Shown here piece after piece: positions 8,152 through 26,321 of a stretch of 32,000 nucleotides of DNA. A program made the position numbers and the translations under genes. The stretch comes from Paracoccus suum. Lineage in GTDB: Bacteria > Pseudomonadota > Alphaproteobacteria > Rhodobacterales > Rhodobacteraceae. Positions within the stretch are counted from its first letter, which is position 1, and each line of letters opens with the position of its first letter. The stretch covers positions 1,410,001-1,442,000 of the forward strand of contig NZ_CP030918.1 in assembly GCF_003324675.1 (NCBI RefSeq), given 5' to 3'. The notes beneath the pieces were generated by a model. The model searched no databases and was not told the origin of the DNA. It worked only from the letters and a program-made list of their open reading frames with translations.

Positions 8152-9362
8152 CTACTCTTGCTGAACGCGATGCGCGCGTGTTTTTGCATCAAAGTTCATC
8201 CTCGCCCGTCCGCAGCGGGCTGCGGGCGGTCGAGGGCATGTGGATCGAGGATAATGACGGCCGCCGCCTGATTGATCTGCACGGCAACACTGCCCATCTT
8301 CTGGGCCACGCGAACCCGGAGATTCGCGCTGCGCTGGCCCGGCAACTCGACGAGCTGGCCTTTTGCCCGCGCCGCTATACCAACGCACCCGCGGTTGAGC
8401 TGGCCGAGGCGCTGACCGCCCGGTGGTCGGGTCGGGGCGAGGCCGGGGTGCTGTTCGCCCCCAGCGGCTCTGACGCTATCGAGATCGCCATGCGCCTTGC
8501 CCGCGCCGCGACCGGAAGGTTCGAGACGGTGTCGCTGGACGGCTCGTTCCACGGCAGCGGCTTTGGCGCGCTGGGCCTTTCAGAGGCCGTGCTGGACCCC
8601 CGCCTCGGCCCGCACCTGCCTGGTCTGCAGCATGTCGCGCCCTATTGGGGTGAGGGCGGCGCCGAGCGCATGCTGGATGGGCTGCGCCAAGCCTTCGCGA
8701 CAAGTGCCACGGGTATTTCCGCGGTGATCGCCGAAGCGGTGCGCTCGAACTGTCATATGCCGCCACCCCAGCTGTGGCCCGAGGTCCGGCGCGTCTGCGA
8801 CGATCATGGCGCGCTGCTGATTTTTGACGAGATTCCCTCGGGCCTCGGCCGGGCGGGCAGGTTTTTCGCCTTCGAACTGTTCGATGTCCAGCCAGACATA
8901 GCGGTGCTGGGCAAGTCGCTCGGTGGTGGGGTTCTGCCGCTGGCCGCCGTGATCGCCGACCGCCGGCTGGACGTCGCCCCGGACCTCGACATCGGGCACT
9001 ACACGCATGAAAAGAACCCGATGCAGGCGCGCGCGGGGCTGACGACCGTGCAGATGGTCCTGCGCGACGATCTCCCCACCCGCGCAGTCGAGATTGGACA
9101 TCGCCTCGCCGAAGGTATCGCCGAGATTGCTGCGCGAACTGGCCGCCCCGCTGGTCTACGCGGCCCCGCCGCGCTTCTTGCGCTCGAGTTGCCGGGATGC
9201 GGGCTCGCAACGGCCGAGTTGGTCGCGCGCTGCAGGGATGCCGGTCTGTCCACTACCGGCAAGGGTCCCCAGTCGGTCGGGCTGAGTCTGCCCTTGACCG
9301 TCAGCGATACGGATATCGACGAAGTGCTGAGCCGGATCGAAACGCTGATTGCGCGTCTCTGA
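8148..9362 (+). CDS. Class-III aminotransferase-fold PLP-dependent enzyme (aminophosphonate transaminase or PbfA-like lyase; function not resolved)
   Basis: 404 aa with APSGSDAIEIAMRLAR, LIFDEIPSGLGRAGRFFAFE and VLGKSLGGG (PLP lysine), all typical of the GABA/ornithine aminotransferase fold. Last gene of the importer operon. Confidence 0.85.
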   Translation: MTTLAERDARVFLHQSSSSPVRSGLRAVEGMWIEDNDGRRLIDLHGNTAHLLGHANPEIRAALARQLDELAFCPRRYTNAPAVELAEALTARWSGRGEAGVLFAPSGSDAIEIAMRLARAATGRFETVSLDGSFHGSGFGALGLSEAVLDPRLGPHLPGLQHVAPYWGEGGAERMLDGLRQAFATSATGISAVIAEAVRSNCHMPPPQLWPEVRRVCDDHGALLIFDEIPSGLGRAGRFFAFELFDVQPDIAVLGKSLGGGVLPLAAVIADRRLDVAPDLDIGHYTHEKNPMQARAGLTTVQMVLRDDLPTRAVEIGHRLAEGIAEIAARTGRPAGLRGPAALLALELPGCGLATAELVARCRDAGLSTTGKGPQSVGLSLPLTVSDTDIDEVLSRIETLIARL

Positions 9363-9379
9363 CCCGGCTCGCGGCTCGG

Positions 9380-10168
9380 TCAGGCGCGCCCGGCCTCAAT
9401 CCGCTCGATCAGCGCGGGTAGATCGGCGACCGTGTCGATCACGTGATCGGCGCCGGCATCGCGCAAAACCGCCGTCGCTTTCGCCCGTAATGCATCCCGC
9501 TCGGCGGCCGGAAGGGCGGCGAGTTCAGAGGCAGACAGCGCCGCCTCGTTGCCCGACAGGGAGAGTCCGACGGTCACGCAGCCCGCCGCAATTCCCTCGG
9601 CGATACCGGGGGCCGTGTCGTCCACCTTGATGACCGACTGCGGCGGATGGGCGACAAGGTCGATAAAGCAGCGATACATCATCAGCGGGCCGGGACGACC
9701 CTCGGCCAGATCGCCCGAGCAGACCAGGTTGTCGGGCGCATAGCCCTGCGCTGCCGCGACGGGCAGGATCCGCTCCATGATCGAACGGGGATAGCCCGTG
9801 GTCGACCCAATCCGGATGCCGCGAGCACGAAGCCAGTTCACCGTTTCCAGCGCGCCCGGAACCAGCGTCGCGTGGTCAGCGGCCATCGTTTCCATAAGCG
9901 GCACGAACTCGGCATGGATGGAATCGACATCCGCGTCAGCCGCATCAGTGCGGCCGCCGGCATGCCATTGCGCCGCGATATGCGGCTCGTCCAGCATTTC
10001 CCGGATGTGATCCCATTTCCGCGCACCCATTGGCTTGCGTGCATCGGCGGCAGAGACCTCGATCCCGAAGCGGCCGAATGCCGTGATCACCGCGTCAACG
10101 GGCGCGAAGGACCCGAAATCGATCATCGTGCCCGCCCAGTCGAACACGACCGCCTTGAATTTGCTCAT
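9380..10168 (-). CDS. phnX: Phosphonoacetaldehyde hydrolase (phosphonatase)
   Basis: 262 aa: MSKFKAVVFDWAGTMIDFGSFAPV...ARKPMGARKWDH...IGSTTGY...GRPGPLMMY...VDDTAPGI. Matches the PhnX HAD-family pattern, including the Asp nucleophile (FDWAGT) and the Schiff-base Lys (ARKPMG). The ATG at 10168 was chosen by homology. Confidence 0.9.
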   Translation of the reverse strand: MSKFKAVVFDWAGTMIDFGSFAPVDAVITAFGRFGIEVSAADARKPMGARKWDHIREMLDEPHIAAQWHAGGRTDAADADVDSIHAEFVPLMETMAADHATLVPGALETVNWLRARGIRIGSTTGYPRSIMERILPVAAAQGYAPDNLVCSGDLAEGRPGPLMMYRCFIDLVAHPPQSVIKVDDTAPGIAEGIAAGCVTVGLSLSGNEAALSASELAALPAAERDALRAKATAVLRDAGADHVIDTVADLPALIERIEAGRA

Positions 10169-10703
10169 CGCCACAAACCTTTTTGTCTTAAAGCTCGAGC
10201 TTGTCGCGTCGGAGGGTAACAGTTTGATGGAACCGGCGGCCCTCGGTGAATCGGCGAGCATCGGCCTCAGCAGCGCCTGTTGCTGCTCGCAGGCGTACAG
10301 GAGTCAAATCCGCAGTGGGACCGGCCGGGTATCGTTCCCTCTCGACGCCGAGAGGTCCGGTTGCCGGGTAGGACGTGCCCTCGCTGTCACGGAAGCGCGA
10401 TAGAACGGCACTAATGTCCAAGTCGCTGGAAACAGATATGGAGCCTTGGGCGGTGGGCAGTCACTGCGATGGCGAGGCTCCGTTTACCGTCGCGAAGGGC
10501 CGGCGGGCGGGACCTCTGGAAGCTCAAGGCGCATTGAGCATCTCCTGCCCGGAGGACTCTCGCACCCGAGCTGCCCCTCGGGCGCCATGTGGCCGGGCCT
10601 CGTTGCAGCTCTGCGCGCCGCAGGCCGCAGCGCCGGTCAGCCTGCCGCCCTGCCCGTTTCGCGGGTCGCCCCCCCAACCCAACCCGAACCCGGAGAAAAA
10701 CCG
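10169..10703. promoter_or_regulatory. Long (535 bp) divergent non-coding region between phnX and the EEP gene; contains the phnX promoter/leader and several GC-rich stem-loops
   Basis: No ORF here has gene-like codon bias. Perfect 12-bp palindrome AAGCTCGAGCTT at 10191-10202. Hairpins CCTCTCG-ACGC-CGAGAGG at 10338-10355 and AGCAGC-N7-GCTGCT at 10269-10287. AACCC-type repeat just upstream of the EEP ribosome-binding site (GGAGA at 10692-10696). Confidence 0.4.
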
Positions 10704-11585
10704 ATGCGCGTCGTCACCTACAACATCCAGTACGGCAAGGGCCGCGACGAGCGCTATGACATCGAGCGCACCGCCGCCGCCTTGGACGGCGCTGACATCA
10801 TCGGCCTTCAGGAGGTCGAGGCCTTTTGGGACCGCTCGGGCAACATTCACCAGTGCGAGCGGATCGCCGAACTTCTGGGCCTCCATTCCGTCTATGGCGT
10901 GACCGTCGACATCCACAAAGGCCTGGCCCTGCCGGACGGCAGGACCCGCGACGTGCGCCGCCAGTTCGGCAATGCCGTGCTGTCGCGCTGGCCGATCCTT
11001 ACCAGCCGCACGTTCCTCTTTCCCAAGCTCAGCCCCGCCAACGCGCATGCCATCCAGCGCGGCATCACCGAGGCGACCATCGCGACACCGCTCGGACCCG
11101 TCCGCGTCTACAGCACCCATTTCTCGCATCTGTGCGAGGAGGAGCGGCTGGATCATGCCCGCATCGCGCTGGAGCTTCACCGGCGTGCCCATGCAGACGG
11201 TCCAGTGGCGAGCGGCGGGCACGCGGACCCGAGCTGGCTGGAGGATAGCCCGCCGCCTGTGCCCGCCGAGGCGATCCTGCTCGGCGATCTGAACTTGACC
11301 CCGGACAGTCCCATCTATGCGGTGCTCACCGGACCGGTCAGCGAAATGTATGGCCGGCTGCACCGGCCCGATGGCTTTGTCGATACCTGGACTGCCGCCG
11401 GGCATGACGAGGCGTCCGGACCGACTTTCTATCACGGCGACGAGGGCTGGCAGGCCAGGACGGGCGAGCGCATCGACTATGTTCTTGCGACGCCCGGCCT
11501 CGCCAAGCGGGTCACGGCGGCTGAGGTGCTGACCGGGATCGACGCCTCGGATCACCAGCCCCTCGCCGTCACTTTCGAGGTCTGA
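10704..11585 (+). CDS. Endonuclease/exonuclease/phosphatase (EEP) family protein
   Basis: 293 aa: MRVVTYNIQYGKG...IIGLQEV...LLGDLNLTPDS...IDYVL...ASDHQPL. All the catalytic motifs of the DNase I/sphingomyelinase-type EEP fold are present. No signal peptide. Confidence 0.85.
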   Translation: MRVVTYNIQYGKGRDERYDIERTAAALDGADIIGLQEVEAFWDRSGNIHQCERIAELLGLHSVYGVTVDIHKGLALPDGRTRDVRRQFGNAVLSRWPILTSRTFLFPKLSPANAHAIQRGITEATIATPLGPVRVYSTHFSHLCEEERLDHARIALELHRRAHADGPVASGGHADPSWLEDSPPPVPAEAILLGDLNLTPDSPIYAVLTGPVSEMYGRLHRPDGFVDTWTAAGHDEASGPTFYHGDEGWQARTGERIDYVLATPGLAKRVTAAEVLTGIDASDHQPLAVTFEV

Positions 11586-11632: not shown

Positions 11633-12244
11633 TCAGGCGCTGTATTTCTCGATGAAGGCATCGATGGGCAGTTCGCGAATGTCGGGCAGCGCCGCGCGCA
11701 GACTATCGTGGCTCCAGTCCCACCATGCGATCTGCTGCAATGCGGCGCCCTGCGCCTCGGTGAAGCGGCGCTTGATTTCGCGTGCGGGCACGCCGCCGAC
11801 GATGGTGTAGGGGGCGACGTCCTTCGACACCACCGCCCCCGCGCCGATCACCGCCCCGTCGCCAATGGTGACGCCCGCCAGCACGGTGACGCCGTGGCCG
11901 ATCCAGACATCATTGCCGATCGTCACCCAGTGGCGCTTGCGCCAGGCGAAGAACTCGGCGTCGTCATCGCCCAGCCCGTATTGCGCGGCGCGGTAGGTGA
12001 AATGATGCTGGCTTGCCCGCCAGGTCGCGTGATTGCCCGGGTTGATCCGCGCTCCTTCCGCGATCGAGCAGAACTTGCCGATGGTGGACCAGATGACATC
12101 GCCATGCTGGACGATGTAGGAATAATCCCCGAACTCGACCTCGCGCATCGACACATGGGCATAGATCTCGGTCCAGCGGCCAAGCTGGCAGTCCACGACG
12201 CTGGCGGTGGGATGGACGTTCGGCGCTTCGTTCAGGGTCTTCAT
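11633..12244 (-). CDS. Phosphonate-metabolism-associated hexapeptide-repeat acyltransferase (LbH family)
   Basis: 203 aa with left-handed beta-helix repeats ([35 protein letters not shown]). ATGA overlap with the upstream phnE, so it is the last gene of the phnCDEE operon. This family is typically found in alphaproteobacterial phn clusters. Confidence 0.85.
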
Positions 12245-13104
12245 GCGGTAGCTCCCACAAGGCGGCTGCGGATCAGGCCAGAAAACCAGTCGATCAGATA
12301 GACCATGAGAATGATCAGGATGATGATCGACCAGACCTCGTCCCAGCGATAGGCGGCGATACGGTCCGACAGCAGGAAGCCGATGCCTCCCGCGCCGACG
12401 ATGCCCAGGATGGTGCCCGAGCGGACATTGGATTCGAAATTGTAAAGCAGGATCGAAAGGATCACGGGCATGACCTGCGGCATTACGCCAAAGCGCACTG
12501 CCTGCAGCCCGGAGCCGCCCGCAGCTGTCACCCCCTCGACCGGGCGGCGCGAGGTGTTCTCGATCGCCTCGGAAAACAACTTGGCAAAGGTGCCGACCTC
12601 ACTGACGGCGATCGCCAGGATCCCGGCCAGCGGGCCTAGTCCGAAGGCGCGGATGAAGATCAGCGCGAGGATCAGCGTCTCGACCGCGCGGATCAGGTCG
12701 TAAAGGCGGCGGGTCGAAAAGCGCAGCAGGGGCAGGCGATTGATGTTGCGGGCGCCGAGGAAGGACAGCGGAAAGGCGGCGAGCGCGCCTAGCACGGTGC
12801 CGAGGAAGGCCATCGAAAGCGTCTCGCCCAGGCCCTTCAGCACCTCCGAGAACTCACGCCACGTGGTCCAGACATGGGGCGGGAACATGAAGCTGAAGAT
12901 GTTTCCCAGCCGCGAGAGCCCCGTCGCAATCCTCTGCGGGGTGATGTCGAAGGCGATGAGGCACCACAGGAACAGTGCCGCGGACCCCGCCCAGAACAGC
13001 GCGCGGATAAGGCGGTGGCACAGCGGCTTGCGGAAGGCGAGCGGTGCACGCGCCCTCGCTGCGTCGATGCGGGCGGCGTCGGGGGCAGAGGGGGCAACGG
13101 TCAT
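12241..13104 (-). CDS. phnE: Phosphonate ABC transporter permease
   Basis: 287 aa polytopic protein with the PhnE-type EAA loop (...[33 protein letters not shown]...). Translationally coupled on both sides. Confidence 0.9.
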
Positions 13105-14030
13105 GTTTCGGCCTCGATCACGCGGTGGCGCAGCTTGCCGGACAGATGGTCGATTACGATGACCGTTACGAGGACGATCACGAACAGCGCCGACAGGTCG
13201 GTGTATTCCTGCAGGCTCATGGCGGTGCGGATTTCCTGCCCGAGGCCGCCGGCGCCAACATAGCCGACGATCGAGGACGAGCGGACGTTGATCTCGAATC
13301 GCAGCAGCGTGTAGCTGATAATGTTCGGCAGCACCTGCGGGACGGCGCCATAGCGGATCTGGTCGAACCAGGTCCCGCCGGCCGCCCTCACGCCCTCCAG
13401 CGGGCGCATGTCGATGTTCTCGTTAACCTCGGAATAGAGCTTGCCGAGCGAGCCGCAGCTATGGATGCCGATTGCCAGCACCCCGGCCATCGGCCCGACC
13501 GAAAAGGCAAAGACAAAGATCAGGGCCCAGACCAGTTCGGGCACGGTACGGGCGATTTCCAGCCAGCGACGGATGAACCAGGTGACGGCCGGATGTGGCG
13601 AGAGGTTGCGTGCCGCGGGAAAGGACAGCAGGAAGCCCCCGGTGACGCCAACCACCGTCGCCATCCAGGCGATCAGGATGGTTTCCCACAGAAGTTCCAG
13701 CCAGATCCGCCAGCGCCAGAACCACGCCGCCAGATCGGCACCAAGGCTGGACCAGCGCAGTTCGGGGATGGTCTTGGACAGGTATTCGCCAAGACGCGGC
13801 AGTCCCGCTGGAATGATCCAGCGCCAGTCGCGGCTGCCGTCGGGCATCGTGACCTGCGTGACCTTGAAGAATTCGCCCAGCCACGCGGTCAGCAGGCACA
13901 GGGCGGCAAAGACGCCGAGCCCGGTCCACCAACGCAGCCGCGCCCGCGTCCTCGCCTGGGCGAAGTCGGTGCGAAATCGCGCCATTGCTGGCGCGCCGTG
14001 CAGCGGTGGATTGATGTCGGCGAGGGTCAT
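13101..14030 (-). CDS. phnE: Phosphonate ABC transporter permease (second copy)
   Basis: 309 aa from the ATG at 14030 (MTLADINPPLHG...). Contains ...SEVNENIDMRPLEGVRAAGGTWFDQIRYGAVPQV.... The upstream extension of the ORF to 14138 would overlap phnD, so it was not used. Confidence 0.85.
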   Translation of the reverse strand: MTLADINPPLHGAPAMARFRTDFAQARTRARLRWWTGLGVFAALCLLTAWLGEFFKVTQVTMPDGSRDWRWIIPAGLPRLGEYLSKTIPELRWSSLGADLAAWFWRWRIWLELLWETILIAWMATVVGVTGGFLLSFPAARNLSPHPAVTWFIRRWLEIARTVPELVWALIFVFAFSVGPMAGVLAIGIHSCGSLGKLYSEVNENIDMRPLEGVRAAGGTWFDQIRYGAVPQVLPNIISYTLLRFEINVRSSSIVGYVGAGGLGQEIRTAMSLQEYTDLSALFVIVLVTVIVIDHLSGKLRHRVIEAET

Positions 14031-14086
14031 TGCGTGTCCGGCGCGAAAGGGCAGGCGAGGGGTCGCCTGCCCGTGGAGGATGAGGG

Positions 14087-15007
14087 TCAGCTGCGGCGAC
14101 GCTGCTCTTTCAGCCAGTCGCGCATGTCGATGATCCACTGGTAGTGGTCGTGATCGACACGGGTGTAGCCCGCGACCGGATTGTCACCGCCGATCTCGTT
14201 GCTGACCATCGCGTCGAACGCCGCCTTGTCGGCGGTCGGAAAGGTCTCGAGCGCGTCGCGCATGTCGTCGATCAGCGCCTCGGGCAGGTTGGCGCGCGCG
14301 GTGAAGGGGCCGTTGGTGATCTCGGGCGATTCCCAGATCTTGCAGATGACGCCGTCCTTCAGCATGCCCTTCAGAACCATGCGCTGCGGGATGCCGCGGG
14401 TGTCGCTGTTCTCGTATGTCGCGGCGGCATCGAAGGTGCCGTTGGCAACGCCCTGGACGCCCGCCTCGTGGCTGCCCGAGAACGGCGTTGCCGAGAAGAA
14501 GCCGTCGCCGAAGCCCTGCTGGACCAGGTTGTAGAACGGCACCGCATAGCCCGACGTGCTGTCGGGATCGGCAAAGGCCAGCACCTTGCCCTTGAGATCC
14601 TCGACATTTTTGTAGTCGTCGGCGCAGCGCGTGACGATCGTCGAGTAATAGCCCGACGTGCCATCGGCATCCTCCGCCGCCAGCAGGGGGATCACCCCGC
14701 CCTTGGTCTCGGACCAGGCGGCGGCATAGGCGGACGAGCCGAGGAACGAGAATTCGATCTGGTTGGCCGCGAGCGCCTGCACGACCCCGTCATAATTGCC
14801 TGCCGTGAACAGCTCGACCTTCACGCCCAGCGTCTTTTCCAGATAGCTCTTCAGGCCGTCGTACCGCTGCACGCGGTCCTTTTCGTTCTCGCCCGAAAGG
14901 ACGCCGAACCGGACGACCTGATAGTCGGCCTTCCAGTCCTGGCCCAGGGCCGGGGTGGTCGTGAGCGCGGCAAGCGCGAGCATCGCAAGGCTGCGGGTGG
15001 GAATCAT
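14087..15007 (-). CDS. phnD: Phosphonate ABC transporter periplasmic binding protein
   Basis: 306 aa with a signal peptide, MIPTRSLAMLALAALTTTPALGQD. Contains VVRFGVLSGEN...LFTAGNYDGVVQAL...SSAY..., typical of PhnD. Confidence 0.9.
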   Translation of the reverse strand: MIPTRSLAMLALAALTTTPALGQDWKADYQVVRFGVLSGENEKDRVQRYDGLKSYLEKTLGVKVELFTAGNYDGVVQALAANQIEFSFLGSSAYAAAWSETKGGVIPLLAAEDADGTSGYYSTIVTRCADDYKNVEDLKGKVLAFADPDSTSGYAVPFYNLVQQGFGDGFFSATPFSGSHEAGVQGVANGTFDAAATYENSDTRGIPQRMVLKGMLKDGVICKIWESPEITNGPFTARANLPEALIDDMRDALETFPTADKAAFDAMVSNEIGGDNPVAGYTRVDHDHYQWIIDMRDWLKEQRRRS

Positions 15008-15030
15008 CGGAAATCTCCGTTGTGGGGGGA

Positions 15031-15846
15031 TCAGGCGTAGGCCGCCACGCCGACATGGCGCGGGGCGGTCGAAGTGACGTCGTGATCGAAAGCCCCGAAG
15101 GCGTCCGAGCCATAGATGTCTCGGACCACGTCGTCGGTCAGTTGGCGCGGCTTGCCGTCAAAGAACACCCGCCCATCGCGCATGGCGATGATGCGGTCTG
15201 AATAAGCCCGGGCAGTGTCCAGCGTGTGCAGGTTTACCAGCACCGTGATGCCGTCCTCGCGGTTGATGCGGCGAAGGCTGTCCATCACAAGCGTCGCGTT
15301 GGCCGGGTCGAGCGAGGCGATCGGTTCGTCCGCGAGCATGATGCGCGGTCGCTGAACCAAGGCGCGGGCGATGGCGACGCGCTGCTGCTGGCCGCCCGAC
15401 AAGGTGCCGGCGCGCTGCAGTGCCTGCGGCACCAGCGACAGCCGGTCCAGTGCCTCGATCGCCATCGTCCGCTCGGCATCGGTAAAATGCATCAGCATCG
15501 ACGAGACAAAGCCATGCTCGGCCAGCCGCCCGACCAACACGTTGGTCAGCACGTCCAGCCGGTCAGACAGGTTGAACTGTTGGAAGATCATCGCGCAGTC
15601 GCGCCGCCATTGCCGCAGCGCTCGGCCGCGCAGGGCGCTGACCTCGGTCCCGCCGAAATGGATCTTTCCCGAGGTCGGCTCGGTCATCCGGTTGATCAGG
15701 CGCAGGAGGGTGGATTTCCCGGCGCCGGAGCGACCGATCACGCCCACGAACTGTCCGGCGGGGATGTCCAGCGAGACGTCGTCGACGGCACGGGTGACGC
15801 CGAACTGACGGGTAAGGCCGGAAAGGGAGAGTTGTTCCTGTGTCAT
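15031..15846 (-). CDS. phnC: Phosphonate ABC transporter ATP-binding protein
   Basis: 271 aa. Walker [13 protein letters not shown], signature [15 protein letters not shown], Walker B IMLADEP. PhnC-type N-terminus. Confidence 0.93.
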
Positions 15847-16000: not shown

Positions 16001-17176
16001 TCAGGCGGCCGCGCGGCCGCCCATCATTCCGTCCGAAAAGATCAGCCGTCCGCCGCGCAGCGTCGCGCGGACATGGCCGATGCCGTTGTCGTCGGCGATC
16101 ACCAGATCGGCGGCGAGCCCCGGGGCGATCCGGCCGCGGTCGACGAGCCCGAGCGCATCTGCGGGATTGGCTGTCGCGAGTCGCGCGGCGCCCGCCAGAC
16201 CCTCCGGGTCGGTGGCCGCCAGGGCAAGCACCGCGGGCAGGATCGCCGAAGGATGGTAATCCGCGGCGAGGATATCGAGCAGCCCGGCGGCATGCGCCTC
16301 GCGCGCAGACAAGTTGCCTGAATAGGAAAGCCCACGCAGCGCATTCGGCGCGCCCATAGCATTCGCCATCCCCGCCGCGCGTGCGGCGCGCGCGGCATCG
16401 AGCGTTACCGGGAATTCGCTGATTGTCGCGCCCAGATCGCGCATCAGCGCAACCTTTTCCGGGCTGTCATCGTCATGGCTGGCCAGCGGCAGGCCATGTG
16501 CGCGGCAGGCCGTGGTCATCGCCCGCAGCACCGCCTCCAGCTGGTCGGGGGCGACGGACTTGCGCTCGATCCGCTCGGCAACCGCGACGCGTGCATCCGC
16601 TTCGGAAAGATTGGCGTTCTTGGCCACGTTGCGGATGTGGCGCTCGAGGTCGCGATACTGGCCTTGGCCCGGGGTGTGGTCCGTCAGCGAGACGAGGTCC
16701 ACCGTGCCCTCGGCGATCAGCTCCTCAACCACGGACAACGCGTCGGGAAAGGTGATCTCGAACCGGGCATGGACGCGGTGATCGACCCCGAGGTGCGGGC
16801 GCATGGCCTTGAGGCCGCGCAGCATGTCCTTGGTGTTGTCGAAATGGCGGATATGACCATAGGCCGAATGGGGGTTGAAGCTGACCGCGGCATAGGCGGT
16901 CGTGACCCCGGCCACCTTGAGCCGCTGGTCCAGATCGCGCAGCCCCAGTGCCAGCGGCATCCGCACCCCGGGGCGGGGTTCCACCTCGCGCTCGATCATG
17001 TCGCCATGCATGTCGATGAAGCCGGGCATGAGGATCAGCCCATGGCCCTCGACCGCGGCGCCGGGCACCGGGATTTCGCGGACCTCGGCGATGTGGCCGT
17101 CCTCGACGCGCAGTGCGCCGAGGTCGATCACCCGGTCGGGCAGCACCAGTCGAAAATCAGACAGCCACATCGGCAT
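16001..17176 (-). CDS. phnM: Alpha-D-ribose 1-methylphosphonate 5-triphosphate diphosphatase
   Basis: 391 aa amidohydrolase-fold protein. Aligns by eye with E. coli PhnM: PGFIDMHGDMIE..PRPGV, LTDHTPGQGQYRD, LASHDDD, GAPNALRG.S.SGN, ILAADYHP. Confidence 0.9.
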   Translation of the reverse strand: MPMWLSDFRLVLPDRVIDLGALRVEDGHIAEVREIPVPGAAVEGHGLILMPGFIDMHGDMIEREVEPRPGVRMPLALGLRDLDQRLKVAGVTTAYAAVSFNPHSAYGHIRHFDNTKDMLRGLKAMRPHLGVDHRVHARFEITFPDALSVVEELIAEGTVDLVSLTDHTPGQGQYRDLERHIRNVAKNANLSEADARVAVAERIERKSVAPDQLEAVLRAMTTACRAHGLPLASHDDDSPEKVALMRDLGATISEFPVTLDAARAARAAGMANAMGAPNALRGLSYSGNLSAREAHAAGLLDILAADYHPSAILPAVLALAATDPEGLAGAARLATANPADALGLVDRGRIAPGLAADLVIADDNGIGHVRATLRGGRLIFSDGMMGGRAAA

Positions 17177-17867
17177 CCTCGCGTGCGGTCAGGGAAAATT
17201 CGCGGTCGATCAGCGCAAGCACATCGCCCGGGTGGTGGAATACCCCGATCATCGCCGTGCCCTGCGCCTTCAGTGCCGATAGGCGCGCGATCAGGGCCGC
17301 CCTTGCGCCAGCATCCAGCGAGGCGGTGGGCTCGTCCAGCAGCAGCAGCCGCGGTGGCAGGATCAGAGCCCGGGCAAGGTTCACCTTTTGCTGCTCGCCG
17401 CCCGAAAAGGTTGCGGGATAGGCGGGCCAGAGGTCAGGCTTGATGCCATAGGATGCCAGCGCCGCGCGGGCGGCTGCCCGTGCCTTGACCAGCGGCTGGC
17501 CGGCGGACAGCAGCGGCTCGGCCACGATGTCCTCGGCCGGAACGCGGGGACGGGCGGTCAGGAACTGGGTGACAAAGCCGATCTCGTGCCGCCGCAACAG
17601 CGCGATGTCGACGTCCGCCGCGCGAGCAAGGTCGATGCGGCCGCCATCCGCCCGGGTAAACACCACGCGCCCGGCCTCCGGCAGGTAGCTGCGCCAGATG
17701 GTCCGCAACAGGGTGGATTTTCCGGCCCCGTTTGCCCCGGACAGCAGCAGGAACTCTCCCTCGTCCAGCGTGAAGCCCAGGTCCTCAAAGGCCGGCAGGG
17801 TCCGGCCCAGGTGATGCATGGTGAAGGATTTGGAAAGGTCCGAGACCTCGAGCACCCGGCGCGTCAT
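17157..17867 (-). CDS. phnL: C-P lyase system ATP-binding protein PhnL
   Basis: 236 aa. Walker [13 protein letters not shown], signature FSGGEQQKVNLARAL, Walker B LLLLDEP. Position between phnK and phnM, with a 20-nt overlap with phnM. Confidence 0.9.
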   Translation of the reverse strand: MTRRVLEVSDLSKSFTMHHLGRTLPAFEDLGFTLDEGEFLLLSGANGAGKSTLLRTIWRSYLPEAGRVVFTRADGGRIDLARAADVDIALLRRHEIGFVTQFLTARPRVPAEDIVAEPLLSAGQPLVKARAAARAALASYGIKPDLWPAYPATFSGGEQQKVNLARALILPPRLLLLDEPTASLDAGARAALIARLSALKAQGTAMIGVFHHPGDVLALIDREFSLTAREDADVAV

Positions 17868-18640
17868 AGCTTTGCCTGCACCAGTTGCTGCGAATAGGGG
17901 TGCTGCGGGTCCTGAAATACCTGGTCCGCCAGCCCCTGTTCGACCACCTGGCCGCGGCGCATGACAACCACCCGGTCGGCCATGGTGCGGATCACCCCCA
18001 GATCGTGGCTGACCAAGATCATCGTGATGCGCCGGTCGCGCTGCAGGTGTTTCAGCGTGTCCAGCACCAGTGCCTGCACGGATACGTCAAGCCCGGTCGT
18101 CGGCTCGTCCAGCAACAGGACGGCCGGCTCCAGCGCAATCGCCTTGGCGAGTTGTACACGCTGCTGCATCCCGCCGGAAAGCTCGACCGGCGGCGCATCC
18201 ATGCGGGCCAGCGGGAACTCGGACGCCTCGAGCGCAACCTGGCCCCGTTCGCGCAGGGCGGCGAAGCGGCGCTCGCCGGCGATCAGCAGCCGCTCGGCCA
18301 CGTTGCCCGAGGAGGAGTTGTGCATCAGCAGGCCCTGATGCGGGTGCTGGTAGACGATGCCGATGTGCCGGGCACAGAGTTGGGCGCGGGCAAAGCGGCC
18401 AAGGTTGAACAGGTTGCCGTCCGCCCCCGGCACGCCCGGCAGCGACAGGCGGTAGTCGCCCGCTTCCGGCACCTCCTGCAGATTCAGCATCCGCAGCAGC
18501 GTCGACTTGCCGGAACCGCTTTCGCCAACGATGCCCAGCACCTCGCCCGGCCAGACGGTCAGTCCGACATCCTGCAGCGCCACGACCTCGCCATAGCGAT
18601 GCGACACCCCGTCGAGCCGGATCAGGGGCTGGTCGGTCAC
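17864..18640 (-). CDS. phnK: C-P lyase system ATP-binding protein PhnK
   Basis: Walker A GESGSGKSTLLR, signature LSGGMQQRVQLAKAI, LLLDEPTTGLDVSVQ, and a ...PQHPYSQQLV C-terminus as in E. coli PhnK. Start assigned to the GTG at 18640 (VTDQPLIRLDGVSHRYG) because the ORF upstream extension overlaps phnJ. The exact start is uncertain. Confidence 0.88.
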   Translation of the reverse strand: MTDQPLIRLDGVSHRYGEVVALQDVGLTVWPGEVLGIVGESGSGKSTLLRMLNLQEVPEAGDYRLSLPGVPGADGNLFNLGRFARAQLCARHIGIVYQHPHQGLLMHNSSSGNVAERLLIAGERRFAALRERGQVALEASEFPLARMDAPPVELSGGMQQRVQLAKAIALEPAVLLLDEPTTGLDVSVQALVLDTLKHLQRDRRITMILVSHDLGVIRTMADRVVVMRRGQVVEQGLADQVFQDPQHPYSQQLVQAKL

Positions 18641-18677
18641 CAGCCGCGGCGGGTCCAGTCCTAGAGCGGGGCGGCCA

Positions 18678-19595
18678 TCAAGCACGACGAAACTCCCCTG
18701 CGCGGTACCACGTCGGGGCGGGAGCGGGGCCCGAACCCTCCGCGGCGCGGATCGCCTTGATGCCCAGTTCGCTGTCCGAGACCTCGTGCATGACCCCGCC
18801 ATCCGCCTGAGGCAGTTCGTTCATGAAATAGCCCCGCAGCCCGCTGCGCCCGCATGTAAGGACGGCGTGATCCTCGACCCGGAAGGGAATGTCGTCGAAC
18901 ACCAGTGGCTCGACCGTGGTATGGGGCGGTACGGCGTAAAGGCGCTTCTCGCGTCCCGCCGACAGGATCGTCAGATGCTCGGCCATGTGCAGCTTGGGCA
19001 GGTCCCAGCGCGGAATGGGCGAGGGGGTCATGACATGGCGGCCATTGACCAGCGCCGGATAGCCCGCCCCCTGCATGATCCGGCCCGCGCGGACGACCTG
19101 CTCGTACAGGATCAGCCACAGCCGCGCATAATCGGCGTCGGCATGCATCTGGCGGGCGCGGGACATGTCGGGCTCGACCGGCCGCAACGGCTCGGGGTTG
19201 GGCACCTGCAGGACCAGCATCTGGTCCGCCCGCAAGACTTCCTCGGGGATGCGGTGGCGCGACTGGATCAGAGTGGCAGCAGTGGTATCGCACGTGCCCG
19301 CCGCGCCCGAGACGCGGGTGACAAAGCGCCGGATCGAGGCGGCGTTGACGCTGTCATCCGCGCCCTGATCGATGACCTTGACGCACGAGCGCGGGTTCAC
19401 CAGCGTCAGCGTGACCTGAAGGCCGCCGGTGCCCCAGCCCCGCGCCATCGGCACCTCGCGGCTGGCATAGGGGATCTGGCAGCCGGGCACGGCGACGGCC
19501 TTGACCATGGCCCGCCGCAACTCGCGCTTGGCCGAGGCGTCGAGGAAACCATAGCTGTGGTCGGCACGCTTCCGGGTCAGTGCGGCGAGGGTCAT
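18678..19595 (-). CDS. phnJ: PhnJ (alpha-D-ribose 1-methylphosphonate 5-phosphate C-P lyase) homologue with atypical C-terminus
   Basis: 305 aa. About 250 aa align closely with E. coli PhnJ (YGFLDA.AKRELRRA.VKAVAVPG.QIPY..REVPM..GWGTGG.Q, KVIDQGADD, LIQSRHRIPE, GREKR.YAVPP). The C-terminal Cys-rich region is altered; see findings. Confidence 0.9.
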   Translation of the reverse strand: MTLAALTRKRADHSYGFLDASAKRELRRAMVKAVAVPGCQIPYASREVPMARGWGTGGLQVTLTLVNPRSCVKVIDQGADDSVNAASIRRFVTRVSGAAGTCDTTAATLIQSRHRIPEEVLRADQMLVLQVPNPEPLRPVEPDMSRARQMHADADYARLWLILYEQVVRAGRIMQGAGYPALVNGRHVMTPSPIPRWDLPKLHMAEHLTILSAGREKRLYAVPPHTTVEPLVFDDIPFRVEDHAVLTCGRSGLRGYFMNELPQADGGVMHEVSDSELGIKAIRAAEGSGPAPAPTWYRAGEFRRA

Positions 19596-20662
19596 TCCGC
19601 GGGCTCCAGTTCAGGTGCGACGCCGGGCTCTGCCTTCTGGCGGGCTGCGCCGCGCAGGTTGTCCAGCGCCGATTGGAAGGTGACGTAATGGGGCAGCTTG
19701 AAGTGGATGCAAAAGCCCGAGGCCTCGACCGGCTCGGTGTGATAGAGGAAGAATTCCGGGTTCGTCGGGCTTTTTGGCGCCGCGTTCGGGCTGTTGAGGT
19801 CCAGCGTCGCCCCGGCGATGGTCTTGACCTCGTTCCAGCCGAAGCTGGCGCAGAATCCCAGCTTCAGCTGGGCGCCCTTGGCGTTGACGACCTCGGCCTG
19901 GCCGACGCGGATTCTGCCCGCGCTGAAGATCGTGCCGCAGGGGTGGGTGACGCGCAACGGAGCCTCAGTCAGGCGTAACTCGTTGACAGTCGGATGCGCC
20001 TGCCCGTAGCCCCGCATTGCCGAATATCCCAGTGCCAGCATCCCGCCGGTGTCGGCGCGGGCGAGGCTTTGCAGCGTGTGCGCGCGGCTGGCGGGGAACA
20101 GCAGCGGCTCGCGCGTGACATCGGGGATGGCGTCGGGCGCGATTTCGGGGGCGTTCAAGGGCGCGAGCAGCCCTTGCGCCCGCTGCCAGTCGGCAAGCGG
20201 CGGCGGGCTGGCCGGCGCAGGACGGGCAGCGGGTTCCACCGGCCGAGGCGTCACAGTCGCGCCCGACAGCACGGCGGTCGCGAGCATGCGGTGGCTGTAA
20301 TCCAGCGTCGGGCCGAGGATCTGGCCGCCGGGGATATCCTTGAACGCGGCCGAGACTCGGCGATGGGTCAGCCCCTCGCCGGTCTGGATCGGCTGCGCGA
20401 TCGCCAGCCGCGGCTGGGTGGTGCGCCAGGCCCGCAGCAACATCACGGCCTCGTAGAGATCGCCGCCGGTCTGGGCCAGCGCCAGCGCTGCAAGGTCGGG
20501 CGCGTAGAGCGAGGCCTCACCCATGACGCGGTCGATCAGCAGGGGCATCCCGTCGCGGATTCCCGCCACCCGCTCGGGCGTGATCGGGCCGAGCGCGGCG
20601 CGATACAGCCGCTCGGCCTGCTCGATGGCGCGCTCGCCGCCCCGGGTCGCGACATAGGCCAT
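19592..20662 (-). CDS. phnI: C-P lyase core complex subunit PhnI (ribosyl-transfer component)
   Basis: 356 aa starting MAYVATRGGERAIEQAERLY (compare E. coli MYVAVKGGEKAI). ATGA overlap with phnJ and a 1-nt overlap with phnH. Confidence 0.9.
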   Translation of the reverse strand: MAYVATRGGERAIEQAERLYRAALGPITPERVAGIRDGMPLLIDRVMGEASLYAPDLAALALAQTGGDLYEAVMLLRAWRTTQPRLAIAQPIQTGEGLTHRRVSAAFKDIPGGQILGPTLDYSHRMLATAVLSGATVTPRPVEPAARPAPASPPPLADWQRAQGLLAPLNAPEIAPDAIPDVTREPLLFPASRAHTLQSLARADTGGMLALGYSAMRGYGQAHPTVNELRLTEAPLRVTHPCGTIFSAGRIRVGQAEVVNAKGAQLKLGFCASFGWNEVKTIAGATLDLNSPNAAPKSPTNPEFFLYHTEPVEASGFCIHFKLPHYVTFQSALDNLRGAARQKAEPGVAPELEPAE

Positions 20663-21210
20663 CAGGGCACCTCCACCCGCGTCGATCGCGGCAGTGCCAG
20701 CACCCGCGCGCCGTCGACGAGGATCAGTTCGAACCCCAGAGGATAGGTGCAGGCGAGTTCGCGCAGTGACCAGAAGGCGGGCGCGATACCGTCCAGCGCG
20801 ATCTGTTGCGCCTGGCGGATGCCGGGGCCGGTCAGGCGCAGCCGCTCGCCTGCGCCGAGGCGCGCGGGTGCGATGATGGTAGCGCCACCCTCGGGGTGAA
20901 GCTCGCTGCCGACCGATAGTTGGGCGACATCCACCAGTGCGACAGGCGTCAGTTGCATGATGGCATGGTCAGCCGTGCCCACGGGCGAGAGCCGCGCGCC
21001 CGTGGCCTGTACCGCCGCGGCATGTTCCGGCGCGTAGACCCGACATTCGCGGTCGATCAGCGCCTGGGCCGCGGTCATCACGCCGCCTTCGGGCAGCTCA
21101 AAGATATCGCCCGGCAGCGACAGCGCCCTCAGGATCGCGTCGAAAGCGGCGTTGTCGCGGGCTTCCTCCGCATCGGGCAAAAGGGTCTCGGACAGGGCGC
21201 TTGCCTGCAT
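20662..21210 (-). CDS. phnH: C-P lyase core complex subunit PhnH
   Basis: 182 aa. FDAILRALSLPG near the N-terminus and ...YPLGFELILVDGARVLALPRSTRVEV at the C-terminus, as in E. coli PhnH. Position between phnG and phnI. Confidence 0.85.
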   Translation of the reverse strand: MQASALSETLLPDAEEARDNAAFDAILRALSLPGDIFELPEGGVMTAAQALIDRECRVYAPEHAAAVQATGARLSPVGTADHAIMQLTPVALVDVAQLSVGSELHPEGGATIIAPARLGAGERLRLTGPGIRQAQQIALDGIAPAFWSLRELACTYPLGFELILVDGARVLALPRSTRVEVP

Positions 21211-21632
21211 CAGAACGTCTCCATCTCGACGCGCGTCGCCTCGATCCGGCGCAGGGTTTCTGTGTCCGCATCGGCCTGCGCGCGGGCCTCGGTCGCCGCA
21301 AAGCGGGCGACGGCATCCGCGCCACGGCCCGCCTGATAGGCGGCGTCCAGCACTGCCATCGCCATTGCCTGCTCCAGGTCCATGCCGATGATCAGGCCAT
21401 AACCCTCGGTGGCCGTTCCGGGCAGGCGGATATGCGCCTCGGCCACCAGCACCTCGCCCAGATGAAAGTTAGTGCCCTGCGCCGTGTCCCGCATTGGCGC
21501 CATGACCAGCCCGCTGCGCGATGCAATGACCTCGACCGCGCCCAGTGCAGGCAGCAATTCCGAGGCCAGCGCCTTGAGGGGGCCGGGTGCAGCGCGGGCC
21601 AGCGTCTCAAGCAAAGCGGCGTGCCCTGTCAT
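21210..21632 (-). CDS. phnG: C-P lyase core complex subunit PhnG
   Basis: 140 aa with GLVMAPMRDTAQGTNFHLGEVLVAEAHIRL and a C-terminal ATRVEMETF (compare E. coli ...SRVDFFTM). Coupled to phnF (ATGA) and to phnH. Confidence 0.85.
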   Translation of the reverse strand: MTGHAALLETLARAAPGPLKALASELLPALGAVEVIASRSGLVMAPMRDTAQGTNFHLGEVLVAEAHIRLPGTATEGYGLIIGMDLEQAMAMAVLDAAYQAGRGADAVARFAATEARAQADADTETLRRIEATRVEMETF

Positions 21633-22363
21633 CCGGCAGCCCCTTCGTTGTCGTCCAGCATGTCGATCGAGAACTGGATGCGGTGCGCGGACCAGATCGA
21701 TTCGGAATAGCCGATGGGCTTGCCGGCGTGGTCGGTGTCGGTCTTTTGCAGCACCATCACCGGCTGGTCGGGATGCTGGTCCAGCAGCCGCGCCTCCGCC
21801 TCGTCGGGCCGGCGGGCATAGATCGTGGTGTTGCGGCGCAGGTAATCGGCGACGCCGTGGGCGCGGTAGACATCAGTGACCGAGCGTCCGGCCTCGCGCT
21901 CGGCCGCCAGGTCGGGAAAGCGTGCGGCGTCATGCCAGCTTTGGTTGAGGTTGATCGGAACGCCATCGGCAAGTCCGCGGCGCAGGGTGTGATGGACGGG
22001 CGCGCCCTCGGCCAGCCCCAGTGCCTCGGCGATGCGGGCGGCGGCGGGCAGGGTTTCGGCGATGATATGCTCGCCCGAAGGCGTGCGGCCTGCCGCCAGC
22101 AGGTTTTCGCGAAAGCGGGTGCGCTTGCTGATGCGATAGCGGATCAGCGGCGCCGAGCGGACGAAGGTGCCGCGCCCCTGCTCGATGCTCAGCAGCCCGT
22201 CCACCGCAAGCGCCGTCATCGCCCGCCGCACGGAATGCCGGCCGCTTCCGAATTCGGCGCAAAGCTGCGATTCGGTCGGCAGCTGCGTCCCATCGGCGTA
22301 GTCGCCCGCGGCGATCCGTTCGGCGACCCGGTCGCGGATATTGGTCCAGTTGTGCTTGTTCAT
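21629..22363 (-). CDS. phnF: GntR/HutC-family phosphonate regulator PhnF
   Basis: 244 aa from the ATG at 22363: MNKHNWTNIRDRVAERIAAGDY..GTQLPTESQLCAEFGSGRHSVRRAMTALAVDGLLSIEQGRGTFV (GntR HTH), followed by a UTRA-type C-terminal domain. First gene of the phnFGHIJKLM string. Confidence 0.85.
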   Translation of the reverse strand: MNKHNWTNIRDRVAERIAAGDYADGTQLPTESQLCAEFGSGRHSVRRAMTALAVDGLLSIEQGRGTFVRSAPLIRYRISKRTRFRENLLAAGRTPSGEHIIAETLPAAARIAEALGLAEGAPVHHTLRRGLADGVPINLNQSWHDAARFPDLAAEREAGRSVTDVYRAHGVADYLRRNTTIYARRPDEAEARLLDQHPDQPVMVLQKTDTDHAGKPIGYSESIWSAHRIQFSIDMLDDNEGAAG

Positions 22364-22520
22364 GGTCGTCCGGCAATCGTTCGGACGTTTCATGAAGACG
22401 CCGCGTGACGACGGAGCGAAGGCTGGTTGAAAGATTTGTGATGATACCGGGGCGGCGTAGACTTCAGGCATGCGGAGGGGCTACCGCACGTGCCGCTGTG
22501 CCCAGCCGTCGCGGTCGCGC

Positions 22521-24516: not shown

Positions 24517-25266
24517 TCACTTCGCATCGTGAAAGATGATCCCGACCGTGTGCCGCTTTCCGCTGCGCAGGCGGCTGACTCCGTGGCGCAGGTTCACGCG
24601 GTAGGTGCCGCGGGTCCCCTGCACTGGCCGGTTGTGGACGGCGAACGCTACGGCGTCGCCCTGCATCAGCGGCACGACCTCGGCGCGGCTCTGCATGCGC
24701 GGGCGCTGTTCGGTCAGGACGAATTCGCCGCCTGTAAAGTCGCGACCCGGCTCTGACAGCAGGAAAGCCACCTGCAGCGGAAAGGCCAGATCGCCGTAGA
24801 GATCCTGATGCAGGCAGTTGAAGTCGCCCTCGACGTATTGCAGCAGCAGCGGTGTCGGACGCGTCTGGCCGGCCTCGTGGCACTGGCGCAGGAAATCCGC
24901 ATGGGCGTCGGGATAGCGCTCATCGATGCCCATGCGCGCATTCCAGTTGTTGGCGACGACCGCCAGCCGCGGCCACAGCGCCGTGCGCAGCCCGCCCAGC
25001 AAGTCGGGCAGCGGGTACTTGAAATAGCGGTACTCGCCCTTGCCAAAGCCATGCCGCGCCATGTGGATATGGCTGCGGAAATGCGCCTCCTCGGGGTAGA
25101 GGGCCGCCAGATCCCGGCATTCCTGCGGGGTCAAGACACCCTTGAGGGTGGCGCAGCCGAAGCGGTCCAGGTCCTCGGCAAAGGCGTCCCAATCATATCG
25201 GGACAAGCGCTCCTCGGCGGACTTTACCGCTGGTCCTGCGGGGGTGAAATCGCTGGGCGCGTTCAT
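24517..25266 (-). CDS. 2OG-Fe(II) oxygenase superfamily protein (prolyl-hydroxylase-like, not canonical AlkB), co-transcribed with ada
   Basis: 249 aa from the ATG at 25266 (MNAPSDFTPAG...). HxD facial-triad motif in NCLHQDLYGD, with a distal His/Arg in VNLRHGVSRLRSGKRHT. ATGA overlap with the ada stop. Confidence 0.85.
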   Translation of the reverse strand: MNAPSDFTPAGPAVKSAEERLSRYDWDAFAEDLDRFGCATLKGVLTPQECRDLAALYPEEAHFRSHIHMARHGFGKGEYRYFKYPLPDLLGGLRTALWPRLAVVANNWNARMGIDERYPDAHADFLRQCHEAGQTRPTPLLLQYVEGDFNCLHQDLYGDLAFPLQVAFLLSEPGRDFTGGEFVLTEQRPRMQSRAEVVPLMQGDAVAFAVHNRPVQGTRGTYRVNLRHGVSRLRSGKRHTVGIIFHDAK

Positions 25267-26321
25267 GCCGCGGCCTCTTTGTCCAGCAGGGCACGTTTGC
25301 GTTCGACCCCCCAGCGATAGCCGGAAAGCGCGCCGTCGCTGCGCACCACGCGGTGGCAGGGAATCGCGACCGCGATCTGGTTGGCGGCGCAGGCCTGCGC
25401 CACGGCGCGGACCGATTTCGGCGCGCCGATCCCTCGGGCGATGTCTGCATAACTGGCCGTCTGGCCGGCTGGAATGTCCCGCAGCGCCTGCCACACCCGT
25501 TGCTGGAAGGCGGTCCCCCGGATGTCCAGCGGAAGGTCCAGTCCAGTTCCCGGCGCCTCGACAAAGCCCACGATCTGGGCGACGCGCGATTCGAACGCGG
25601 CATCGCCGCCGATCAGATCGGCGTGGGGAAAGCGGTCCTGGAGGCCGCGAACCAATGCCTCGGGGTCGTCCCCAAGCGCAATCGCGCAGATCCCCTTGTC
25701 AGTTTCGGCGACGAGGATCGGGCCGAGCACGCTCTCGCCCACGGCAAAGCGGATATGGCTGTCCTTGCCGCCTTGGCGAAAGGCCGTGGGTGTCATCCCC
25801 AGGACGTCGCGGGAGGCCTCATAGAACCGGCTGTTCGCGTTGTAGCCGGCCTCATAGATCGCTTCGGTCACGGTATTCTCCATGTCTTGCAGTCCGGCGC
25901 GCAGCTTGCGGGCGCGATGCGCCGCAGCCCAGGCGCGCGGCGTCAGGCCGGTGAGGGCCTTGAACTGGCGGTGGAAATAATGGCTGCTGAAACCGACCCT
26001 TGCGGCGAGCCTGTCCAGCTTTGGCATCTCGTCCGACGCCTCGATGATCCGGCAGGCCTCGGCGATGATCGCGGCGTTGGCCTCGGTTGCAGATTGTCCC
26101 TTTGGGTTGCAACGCAGGCAGGGGCGATAGCCCGCCCCCTCGGCCGCAGCCGGCCCGTCGTAGAAGTTGACATTGGCCGGTTTGGCCCGACGCGACGGGC
26201 AGGAGGGGCGGCAGTAGACACCGGTCGTTCGCACGGCAAAAACGAAGCTGCCGTCTGCGGTCGCGTCGCGGTCGACGACGCGTTGCCAGCGGGGGTCTTG
26301 CTCGGTCTGGGTAGGTTCCAT
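25263..26321 (-). CDS. ada: Bifunctional Ada: methylphosphotriester-DNA methyltransferase / AraC-type regulator / O6-methylguanine-DNA methyltransferase
   Basis: 352 aa. N-terminal zinc domain FVFAVRTTGVYCRPSCPSRRA...YRPCLRCNP. AraC HTH in the middle. C-terminal active site IPCHRVV. Confidence 0.9.
   Translation of the reverse strand: MEPTQTEQDPRWQRVVDRDATADGSFVFAVRTTGVYCRPSCPSRRAKPANVNFYDGPAAAEGAGYRPCLRCNPKGQSATEANAAIIAEACRIIEASDEMPKLDRLAARVGFSSHYFHRQFKALTGLTPRAWAAAHRARKLRAGLQDMENTVTEAIYEAGYNANSRFYEASRDVLGMTPTAFRQGGKDSHIRFAVGESVLGPILVAETDKGICAIALGDDPEALVRGLQDRFPHADLIGGDAAFESRVAQIVGFVEAPGTGLDLPLDIRGTAFQQRVWQALRDIPAGQTASYADIARGIGAPKSVRAVAQACAANQIAVAIPCHRVVRSDGALSGYRWGVERKRALLDKEAAA

Follow-up and report, generated by a model that had tools for sequence, protein, structure and literature searches.

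The carbon-phosphorus (C-P) lyase is the main bacterial route to alkylphosphonates and glyphosate, and contributes methane to oxic waters. In the E. coli enzyme, three cysteines of the subunit PhnJ (Cys241, Cys244 and Cys266) are the ligands of a [4Fe-4S] cluster, Cys272 is the thiyl-radical residue, and Gly32 is the glycyl-radical site. The E. coli structures place the cluster site ~30 Å from Gly32, a gap that is unexplained. The four cysteines are regarded as conserved in the literature, and a Methylotenera study takes their presence as validation. Here we describe a PhnJ that has kept only one of them. It is encoded in a 32,000-nucleotide stretch of the Paracoccus suum genome (contig NZ_CP030918.1, positions 1,410,001 to 1,442,000 of the forward strand), which we refer to as the window. 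We found no description of such cysteine-poor PhnJ proteins in the openly searchable literature, although they may have been mentioned earlier in subscription papers.

The PF06007 profile matched the window PhnJ at E = 1e-113 (379.4 bits, where the cut-off is 25, and spanning positions 3-268 of the 275 in the profile). HMMER matched it to the E. coli PhnJ chains 7z15_D and 4xb6_D at E values of about 1e-77, and its identity to E. coli PhnJ was 46-48%. An exact look-up returned an identical protein from Paracoccus suum, WP_114075778.1. The gene sits between phnI and phnK of a phnGHIJKLM operon, and its ATGA overlap with phnI, reported in an earlier note on this DNA, was real (19592-19595). That note had aligned the protein by eye with E. 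coli PhnJ and concluded that three of the four C-terminal cysteines were gone. The codons and coordinates that it gave were exact (Table 1), and we observed the same pairing of all four positions with HMMER (C248 with E. coli C241, and S251 with C244) and with MAFFT (V272 with C266, and G278 with C272). Thus, only the first cysteine is kept, and the window PhnJ has neither the three-cysteine ligand set nor the thiyl-radical residue. The glycyl-radical position is retained as Gly38, in the AVPGCQIPY segment that the note had picked out. The protein has four cysteines in total, at positions 39, 71, 102 and 248. None of the remaining five reading frames encoded a CxxC across 18600-18960, in agreement with the claim that a frameshift does not explain the missing cysteines.

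We observed that the same pattern, C / S(T) / V,L,A,I,T / G(A), was present at the four positions in all of the 120 closest homologues (76-91% identity). These included Paracoccaceae, Devosia, Hoeflea, Ochrobactrum sp. BTU2, Psychromarinibacter and Pacificibacter. The C248 column was Cys in 120/120 (it is Asp in the Meiothermus-type subclade), the S251 column was Ser in 119 and Thr in one, the V272 column was V, L, A, I or T throughout, and the G278 column was Gly in 119/120. The Ser, Val and Gly states are common to the relatives, and so represent a trait of the clade. Of the 187 columns with a conservation of 95% or higher, the window PhnJ deviated at one, and the homologues deviated from one another to no lesser degree. 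Within genera, the ratio of nonsynonymous to synonymous substitution rates (dN/dS) was 0.00-0.06 for the PhnJ core and 0.0-0.3, mostly ~0.1, for codons 240-302, indicating that the C-terminal domain is under purifying selection.

Two of the readings that had been offered for the missing cysteines did not survive this comparison. A recent inactivation is refuted by the shared pattern, the single deviating column and the purifying selection on the C-terminal domain. Base-call errors are refuted by the shared pattern and by the identical protein deposited for Paracoccus suum. Nothing besides the missing cysteines themselves speaks for a pseudogene in the making or a sequencing error in this genome; the clade-wide pattern, the purifying selection, the lack of a CxxC in other frames and the identical public protein all speak against it, and we consider its probability to be virtually nil. 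These comparisons indicate that the window phnJ is an intact and ordinary member of a large and old branch of cysteine-poor PhnJ.

An AlphaFold2 (AF2) model of the window PhnJ was built on an alignment of 92 sequences from diverse clade members. The mean predicted local distance difference test score (pLDDT) was 87.3, and was at least 91 in each 10-residue block of residues 241-300. The model superposed on full-length E. coli PhnJ (7z19_H/4xb6_D) with target-normalised template modelling (TM) scores of 0.91-0.92 over 273-278 aligned columns, and it had the E. coli fold, with both the central insertion and the C-terminal domain. The C-terminal domain is extended in the model by a helix (residues 275-285) and terminal strands ending TWY..GEF, while the motifs FMNE[IL]P and SDS, and the residues K280 and T295, are kept. 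Taken together, the high pLDDT, the selection on this region and the full-length superposition indicate that the C-terminal domain is a well-defined, selected structure that has no metal-binding cysteines. The model suggests that, in this clade, the place of the cysteine knuckle has been taken by a C-terminal domain that has the same fold but no metal, and that carries the extra helix and strands.

Cysteine-poor PhnJ was found in Alphaproteobacteria, Thermus, Deinococcota, Chloroflexota, Bacteroidota and Verrucomicrobiota. Plasmids of Thermus thermophilus, among them pVV8 of strain HB8, encode a PhnJ with C/T/V/M at these positions. With a divergent member of the clade as the query, we retrieved another 118 proteins; they came from Thermaceae, Meiothermus, Deinococcus, Anaerolineae, Chloroflexales and a Burkholderiales metagenome-assembled genome (MAG). 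All 118 had one or none of the four cysteines, and many had Asp at the C241 position. Among 74 loci from species-representative genomes, a sample skewed to relatives of the window, 53 were cysteine-poor (38 alphaproteobacterial, 14 from Bacteroidota/Verrucomicrobiota and one from Erysipelotrichaceae). The other 21 had all four cysteines, and included SAR116, Bacillus and its relatives, actinobacteria and the Ciceribacter/Roseovarius UBA6217 group. PhnJ of the four-cysteine type is also encoded by S. meliloti pSymB, Paracoccus versutus pTAV3, Haloarcula and E. coli. A library of representatives at 50% identity consisted mostly of fragments and fusions owing to the strong conservation of PhnJ, and served as a lead to divergent variants only.

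Neighbor-joining (NJ) trees were constructed on core residues, with the C-terminal domain left out; their deep topology was unstable. One tree had a single cysteine-poor clade beside the four-cysteine haloarchaea, with the Erysipelotrichaceae sequence apart, and a second tree had the cysteine-poor proteins in two or three groups. These two topologies indicate that the cysteines were lost one to three times. Cys241 appears to have been lost later, in the Meiothermus-type branch. The PhnJ of the Erysipelotrichaceae MAG (L067), which reads C/S/T/L, grouped with the four-cysteine Firmicutes in both trees, and looks like an independent loss of the motif. Some PhnJ-family proteins were shorter, ~249-255 residues in length (P0389-P0400, relatives of P0247), and the few named ones were from Bacteroidota, Bacillota and Chloroflexota; they may be either truncated gene calls or a subfamily with a short tail. 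P0247 had been considered as SAR11-like, and this was rejected since its relatives were these short sequences and not Pelagibacter.

Gly38, Arg113, His114 and Gln130 of the window PhnJ, which correspond to E. coli Gly32, Arg107, His108 and Gln124, were invariant in the 92 diverse clade members. In cryo-EM structures of the E. coli complex, Arg107, His108 and Gln124 touch the bound product 5-phosphoribosyl 1,2-cyclic phosphate (PRcP) (PMC9947105). The two metal-site histidines of PhnI were also kept, as H320 (E. coli H328) and H325 (E. coli H333). The window PhnJ is therefore like E. coli PhnJ in its Pfam family, its full-length fold, its place in the operon and these residues of PhnJ and PhnI. 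It is unlike E. coli PhnJ in lacking Cys244 and Cys266 of the cluster as well as the thiyl-radical Cys272, and in its C-terminal extension of ~25 residues. The system as a whole also differs, with a Cys in place of PhnI Val326, diverged PhnK and PhnL, and an operon without phnN, phnO and phnP. The PhnJ of haloarchaea (Haloarcula pHsi204) and of Methylibium/Ciceribacter shares the core motifs ARGWGTGG, SRHRIPEE and PRWD with the window type, but retains all four cysteines; in Haloarcula and Methylibium the gene order GHIJKLM is shared as well, and the Methylibium group also shares the Cys of the PhnI GFC-H motif.

This PhnI cysteine, C318, replaces E. coli V326, two residues ahead of the first metal-binding histidine. 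It was Cys in 39/39 alphaproteobacterial operons of the cysteine-poor type and in 7/7 sampled Chloroflexota/Deinococcota operons, in three of which it was the only cysteine of PhnI. Beyond the window, the loci with this GFC-I-H-x4-H cysteine were L006, L008, L010-L043 and L086-L089. The four-cysteine operons had V, L or I at this position, save for one lineage with GFCTH that comprises Methylibium PM1, Ciceribacter and Roseovarius UBA6217. Five loci combined a four-cysteine PhnJ with a PhnI reading GFCTHYKMPHY, namely L060, L061, L063, L065 and L090 (the last from the Methylibium petroleiphilum PM1 plasmid RPME01).

We also evaluated whether the cluster could have been relocated, by counting cysteines across the complex. 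The Thermus operon had 0 in PhnG, 0 in PhnH, 0 in PhnI, 1 in PhnJ, 1 in PhnK, 1 in PhnL and 0 in PhnM, so that its PhnGHIJ core has one cysteine altogether. In four Meiothermus-type operons, the counts were 0-2 for PhnH, 1-2 for PhnI, 0 for PhnJ, 0 for PhnK and 1-2 for PhnL, with 1-2 for PhnG and 3-4 for PhnM in the three operons where these were seen. The Meiothermus-type cores thus had two to five cysteines, the sole shared one being in PhnI. Within PhnJ, C71 was Cys in 4/120 relatives and C102 in 3/120, while C39 was Cys in 105/120 near relatives and Tyr across the rest of the clade. The partner subunits had no conserved multi-cysteine motif, and no shared cysteine column linked the subunits across the clade. 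Neither the 32-kb window nor the flanks of nine related operons contained a radical S-adenosylmethionine (radical-SAM) gene; the nine included the operons of Haematobacter, Thermus, Meiothermus, Roseilinea and Deinococcus and of three MAGs. Together, the cysteine counts, the cysteine columns and the lack of an adjoining radical-SAM gene argue that a three-cysteine [4Fe-4S] site is unavailable to the clade as a whole. Taken clade-wide, PhnGHIJKLM has too few conserved cysteines for the ligation of a [4Fe-4S] cluster, and PhnJ offers no conserved thiol for the role of the Cys272 thiyl.

A [4Fe-4S] site rebuilt from the other PhnJ cysteines (C39, C71 and C102) or from those of a partner subunit would have some material in the alphaproteobacterial subclade, where PhnJ C248, PhnH C56 and PhnI C318 do not vary and C39 is often found in PhnJ. 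However, these three residues are spread over three subunits and two sites, separate ones according to the E. coli papers; PhnH C56 is absent in Thermus, L088 and L089; C71 and C102 are rare; and the Thermus and Meiothermus-type cores have too little to offer, with one cysteine in the former and only the PhnI one shared in the latter. Such a rebuilt site is very improbable, and it is already contradicted when the whole clade is considered. The third reading in the earlier note, a PhnJ variant that builds its site differently, therefore stands in outline, while the particular sources that it named do not: C71 and C102 are rare among the relatives, C39 gives way to Tyr outside the near relatives, and the partner subunits lack a conserved multi-cysteine motif.

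Glycyl-radical enzymes such as pyruvate formate-lyase are activated in trans by an activase, and their conserved glycine stores the radical. By analogy, the passing of a glycyl radical to a cysteine thiol would be a feature that they share with the E. coli PhnJ model; they would differ from the window system in that no activase gene is linked to its operon, and in that the Meiothermus-type PhnJ has no cysteine. Radical-SAM chemistry might nevertheless be kept in the clade if a separate enzyme, supplied in trans, installed a radical on Gly38. The invariance of Gly38 would fit this, and the idea is compatible with the explanation that we favour below, being one branch of it. On the other hand, no radical-SAM gene was present in or beside the ten operons inspected, the Meiothermus-type PhnJ has no cysteine that could accept the radical, and many carriers of the cysteine-poor type are strict aerobes. 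We regard an activase in trans as rather improbable.

We consider it probable that the window PhnJ is an intact member of the cysteine-poor clade, that its C-terminal domain is metal-free, and that its complex is still a lyase with a different initiation; as a whole, this is the best explanation of the data. Such a complex would still turn ribosyl-phosphonate into PRcP at the His/metal site between PhnI and PhnJ, and its chemistry would start otherwise than in E. coli PhnJ. If a radical initiator is needed at all, its gene would lie elsewhere. For the subclade of the window, the strongest candidate to stand in for the missing thiol, or to serve as a new ligand of the metal (C-x-H-x4-H), would be the invariant PhnI Cys318; the catalytic thiol or third metal ligand may then be in PhnI, at the place that the product analogue occupies in the E. 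coli structures. As the branch lacks the presumed cluster and radical cysteines, the E. coli cluster-and-thiyl scheme cannot hold for it as written. A stronger statement, that unactivated C-P bonds are cleaved at the PhnI-PhnJ metal site without a PhnJ cluster, without a PhnJ thiyl and independently of PhnJ-bound radical SAM, possibly in an oxygen-tolerant manner, is put forward as a tentative possibility.

Several points weigh against a cluster-free lyase. The in vitro activity of E. coli PhnJ is tied to the cluster and to Cys272 in the summaries that two papers give of this work (PMC9947105, PMC11978286), and no experiments on any cysteine-poor PhnJ were found in the literature searched. The functional clones and isolates that could be traced (Martinez 2013, PMC3840354; Sosa 2017, PMC5649143) share the rcsF/phnN operon layout, which we found alongside four-cysteine PhnJ. 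The PhnI C318 position is Ala in Thermus and Thr in Bacteroidota/Verrucomicrobiota, both of which keep the Cys at the PhnJ C241 position, and Cys318 is also present in a four-cysteine lineage, e.g. Methylibium PM1. Since it is not universal in the cysteine-poor clade, Cys318 can be neither a general solution nor the whole answer. Finally, the cysteine-poor enzyme may depend on, or have diverged from, a co-resident four-cysteine enzyme. Massot et al. 2021 reported an 'additional phn operon' in Rhizobium strains (PMC7840833), and we observed that one of their strains, Rhizobium sp. P32RR-XVIII (L039), carries the cysteine-poor PhnJ; therefore, both types can coexist in one genome.

The same Rhizobium strains, in which the cysteine-poor operon is an extra one beside the standard operon (PMC7840833, L039), would suit a non-catalytic or functionally shifted paralogue. 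Its operon would make and trim ribosyl-phosphonates while leaving unactivated C-P bonds uncleaved, or would need a co-resident four-cysteine PhnJ or operon. The frequent occurrence of four-cysteine operons on Paracoccus plasmids, the absence of phnN and phnP from the window, and the scores of PhnK and PhnL under their equivalog cut-offs would also be in line with such a shift. Yet the substrate- and metal-site residues are all invariant, purifying selection is very strong, and the 118 returned relatives were cysteine-poor without exception. Moreover, the operons of Thermus, Meiothermus, Deinococcus and Roseilinea are self-contained, with their own transporter included, and some operons contain esterases of the cyclic-phosphate type. 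We consider a shifted paralogue unlikely. The esterases in question are a 2H phosphoesterase in the Roseilinea operon and a metallophosphoesterase in L086 (4352-5155) and in L087 (6344-7087), and a cyclic-phosphate product would fit both types.

A selectively maintained cysteine-poor clade means either that there is a second way of starting or doing C-P chemistry, or that genes annotated as 'PhnJ', thousands of them, have a different function. If the cluster-free lyase is true, the E. coli Cys4 site is not central to the enzyme everywhere, which would also bear on the 30 Å gap. The Thermus and Meiothermus complexes are nearly cysteine-free and should be thermostable, making them attractive for biochemistry and cryo-EM.

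The clade is also of consequence for environmental surveys. In the global marine survey of Lockwood et al. 2022, the PhnJ database was limited to carriers of C241, C244, C266 and C272 (PMC9381506, Supplementary Table S2). A four-cysteine filter, used in at least this one global marine survey, discards the cysteine-poor clade, including many Rhodobacterales and Hyphomicrobiales. In the same survey phnI and phnJ reads fell to different taxa (PMC9381506). This mismatch is possibly due to the cysteine filter, although the four-cysteine PhnJ of SAR116 weighs against it. As possible experimental proof of function we considered the fosmids of Martinez 2013, the Sulfitobacter isolates of Sosa 2017, Marivita MAGs, Variovorax xiamenensis and the strains of Massot 2021, and for none of them could the experimental evidence be linked to a cysteine-poor PhnJ. 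The PhnJ of Ochrobactrum sp. BTU2 formed a singleton cluster, and was thus uninformative on the glyphosate-degrading Ochrobactrum strains.

The features of the window are collected in Table 1. The C-P lyase operon consists of phnF-GHIJKLM, followed by phnC, phnD, two phnE genes and a hexapeptide transferase. As the earlier note had it, the other phn genes are intact: phnG, H, I, J, K, L and M were all present, some of them with scores below the equivalog cut-offs.

Table 1. Features of the window, with coordinates counted from its first nucleotide.
Feature	Coordinates	Strand	Evidence or remark
phnJ, cysteine-poor type, 305 residues	18678-19595	-	PF06007, E. coli structure matches, AF2 model
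PhnJ C-terminal domain, residues 240-305, without Cys knuckle, ~25-residue extension	18678-18878	-	AF2 and dN/dS
Gly278 (GGC) at E. coli Cys272 (thiyl radical) position	18762-18764	-	MAFFT alignment
Val272 (GTC) at E. coli Cys266 position	18780-18782	-	MAFFT alignment
Ser251 (AGC) at E. coli Cys244 position	18843-18845	-	HMMER and homologue alignment
Cys248 (TGC), E. coli Cys241 equivalent	18852-18854	-	HMMER and homologue alignment
Gly38 (E. coli Gly32 equivalent), then Cys39	19479-19484	-	in AVPGCQIPY; G38 = GGC 19482-19484
phnI, 356 residues	19592-20662	-	PF05861 E = 7.5e-104; E. coli PhnI 7z15_C E = 1e-59
PhnI motif C318-I-H320-F-K-L-P-H325 (GFC318-I-H320-FKLP-H325-Y)	19688-19711	-	alignment to E. 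coli PhnI
phnH	20662-21210	-	PF05845; TIGR03292 94.4 vs cut-off 91.5
phnG	21210-21632	-	PF06754; TIGR03293 88.3, slightly below cut-off 89
phnF-like GntR/UTRA regulator	21629-22471	-	
phnK	17864-18685	-	TIGR02323 212 bits, below equivalog cut-off 302.85; inferred GTG start at 18685
phnL	17157-17867	-	TIGR02324 230.6 bits, below cut-off 256.3
phnM	16001-17176	-	NF011988 515.7 bits vs cut-off 369
phnC	15031-15846	-	
phnD	14087-15007	-	
phnE permease 1	13101-14138	-	start uncertain
phnE permease 2	12241-13104	-	
Phosphonate-associated hexapeptide transferase	11633-12244	-	
PhnX, phosphonoacetaldehyde hydrolase	9380-10261	-	326.8 bits vs 220
Class-III aminotransferase	8148-9362		nearest PbfA lyase model, below cut-off (376 bits vs 525)
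Fused permease	6004-8151		
ATP-binding cassette (ABC) ATPase	4919-6076		
PhnS2-like binding protein	4026-4991		
phn-type LysR regulator	3021-3986	-	
PF09859 'Oxygenase-NA' protein, longest open reading frame	24517-25494	-	overlaps Ada-type gene by ~230 nucleotides
Ada-type methyltransferase/regulator	25263-26321	-	

The scores of PhnK, PhnL and PhnG below the NCBIfam equivalog cut-offs mark the window operon as a diverged subtype. Accordingly, PhnK and PhnL of the operons in Haematobacter and Thermus have no more specific NCBI name than 'ABC domain-containing protein'. The GTG start of phnK overlaps the phnJ stop by 8 nucleotides and fits the PhnK alignment range of 19-271; a longer phnK reading frame to 18802, from an ATG 125 nucleotides inside phnJ, is probably not used. 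In the phnC-phnD-phnE-phnE-transferase block (11633-15846), TIGR03308 scored 289.8 bits. We found no phnP, phnPP or phnN in the 32-kb window, and these may be encoded elsewhere in the genome.

The gene layout varied among the related operons. Four operons of the Deinococcota type (L006 and L087-L089) had the hexapeptide transferase between phnK and phnL, unlike the window, and two (L086 and L087) had a metallophosphoesterase between these genes. On Haematobacter pOT1-5, a second place indicated by tblastn did not lie within the first 100 kb.

A second phosphonate route adjoins the C-P lyase operon (window 3021-10261), comprising the genes from the LysR regulator to phnX. Between phnX and the C-P lyase transporter genes lies a gene for an endonuclease/exonuclease/phosphatase-family protein (10446-11585, + strand), which had no NCBIfam match. 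On the other side of the operon, the true start of the PF09859 gene, whose longest reading frame runs into the Ada-type gene, is probably further downstream.

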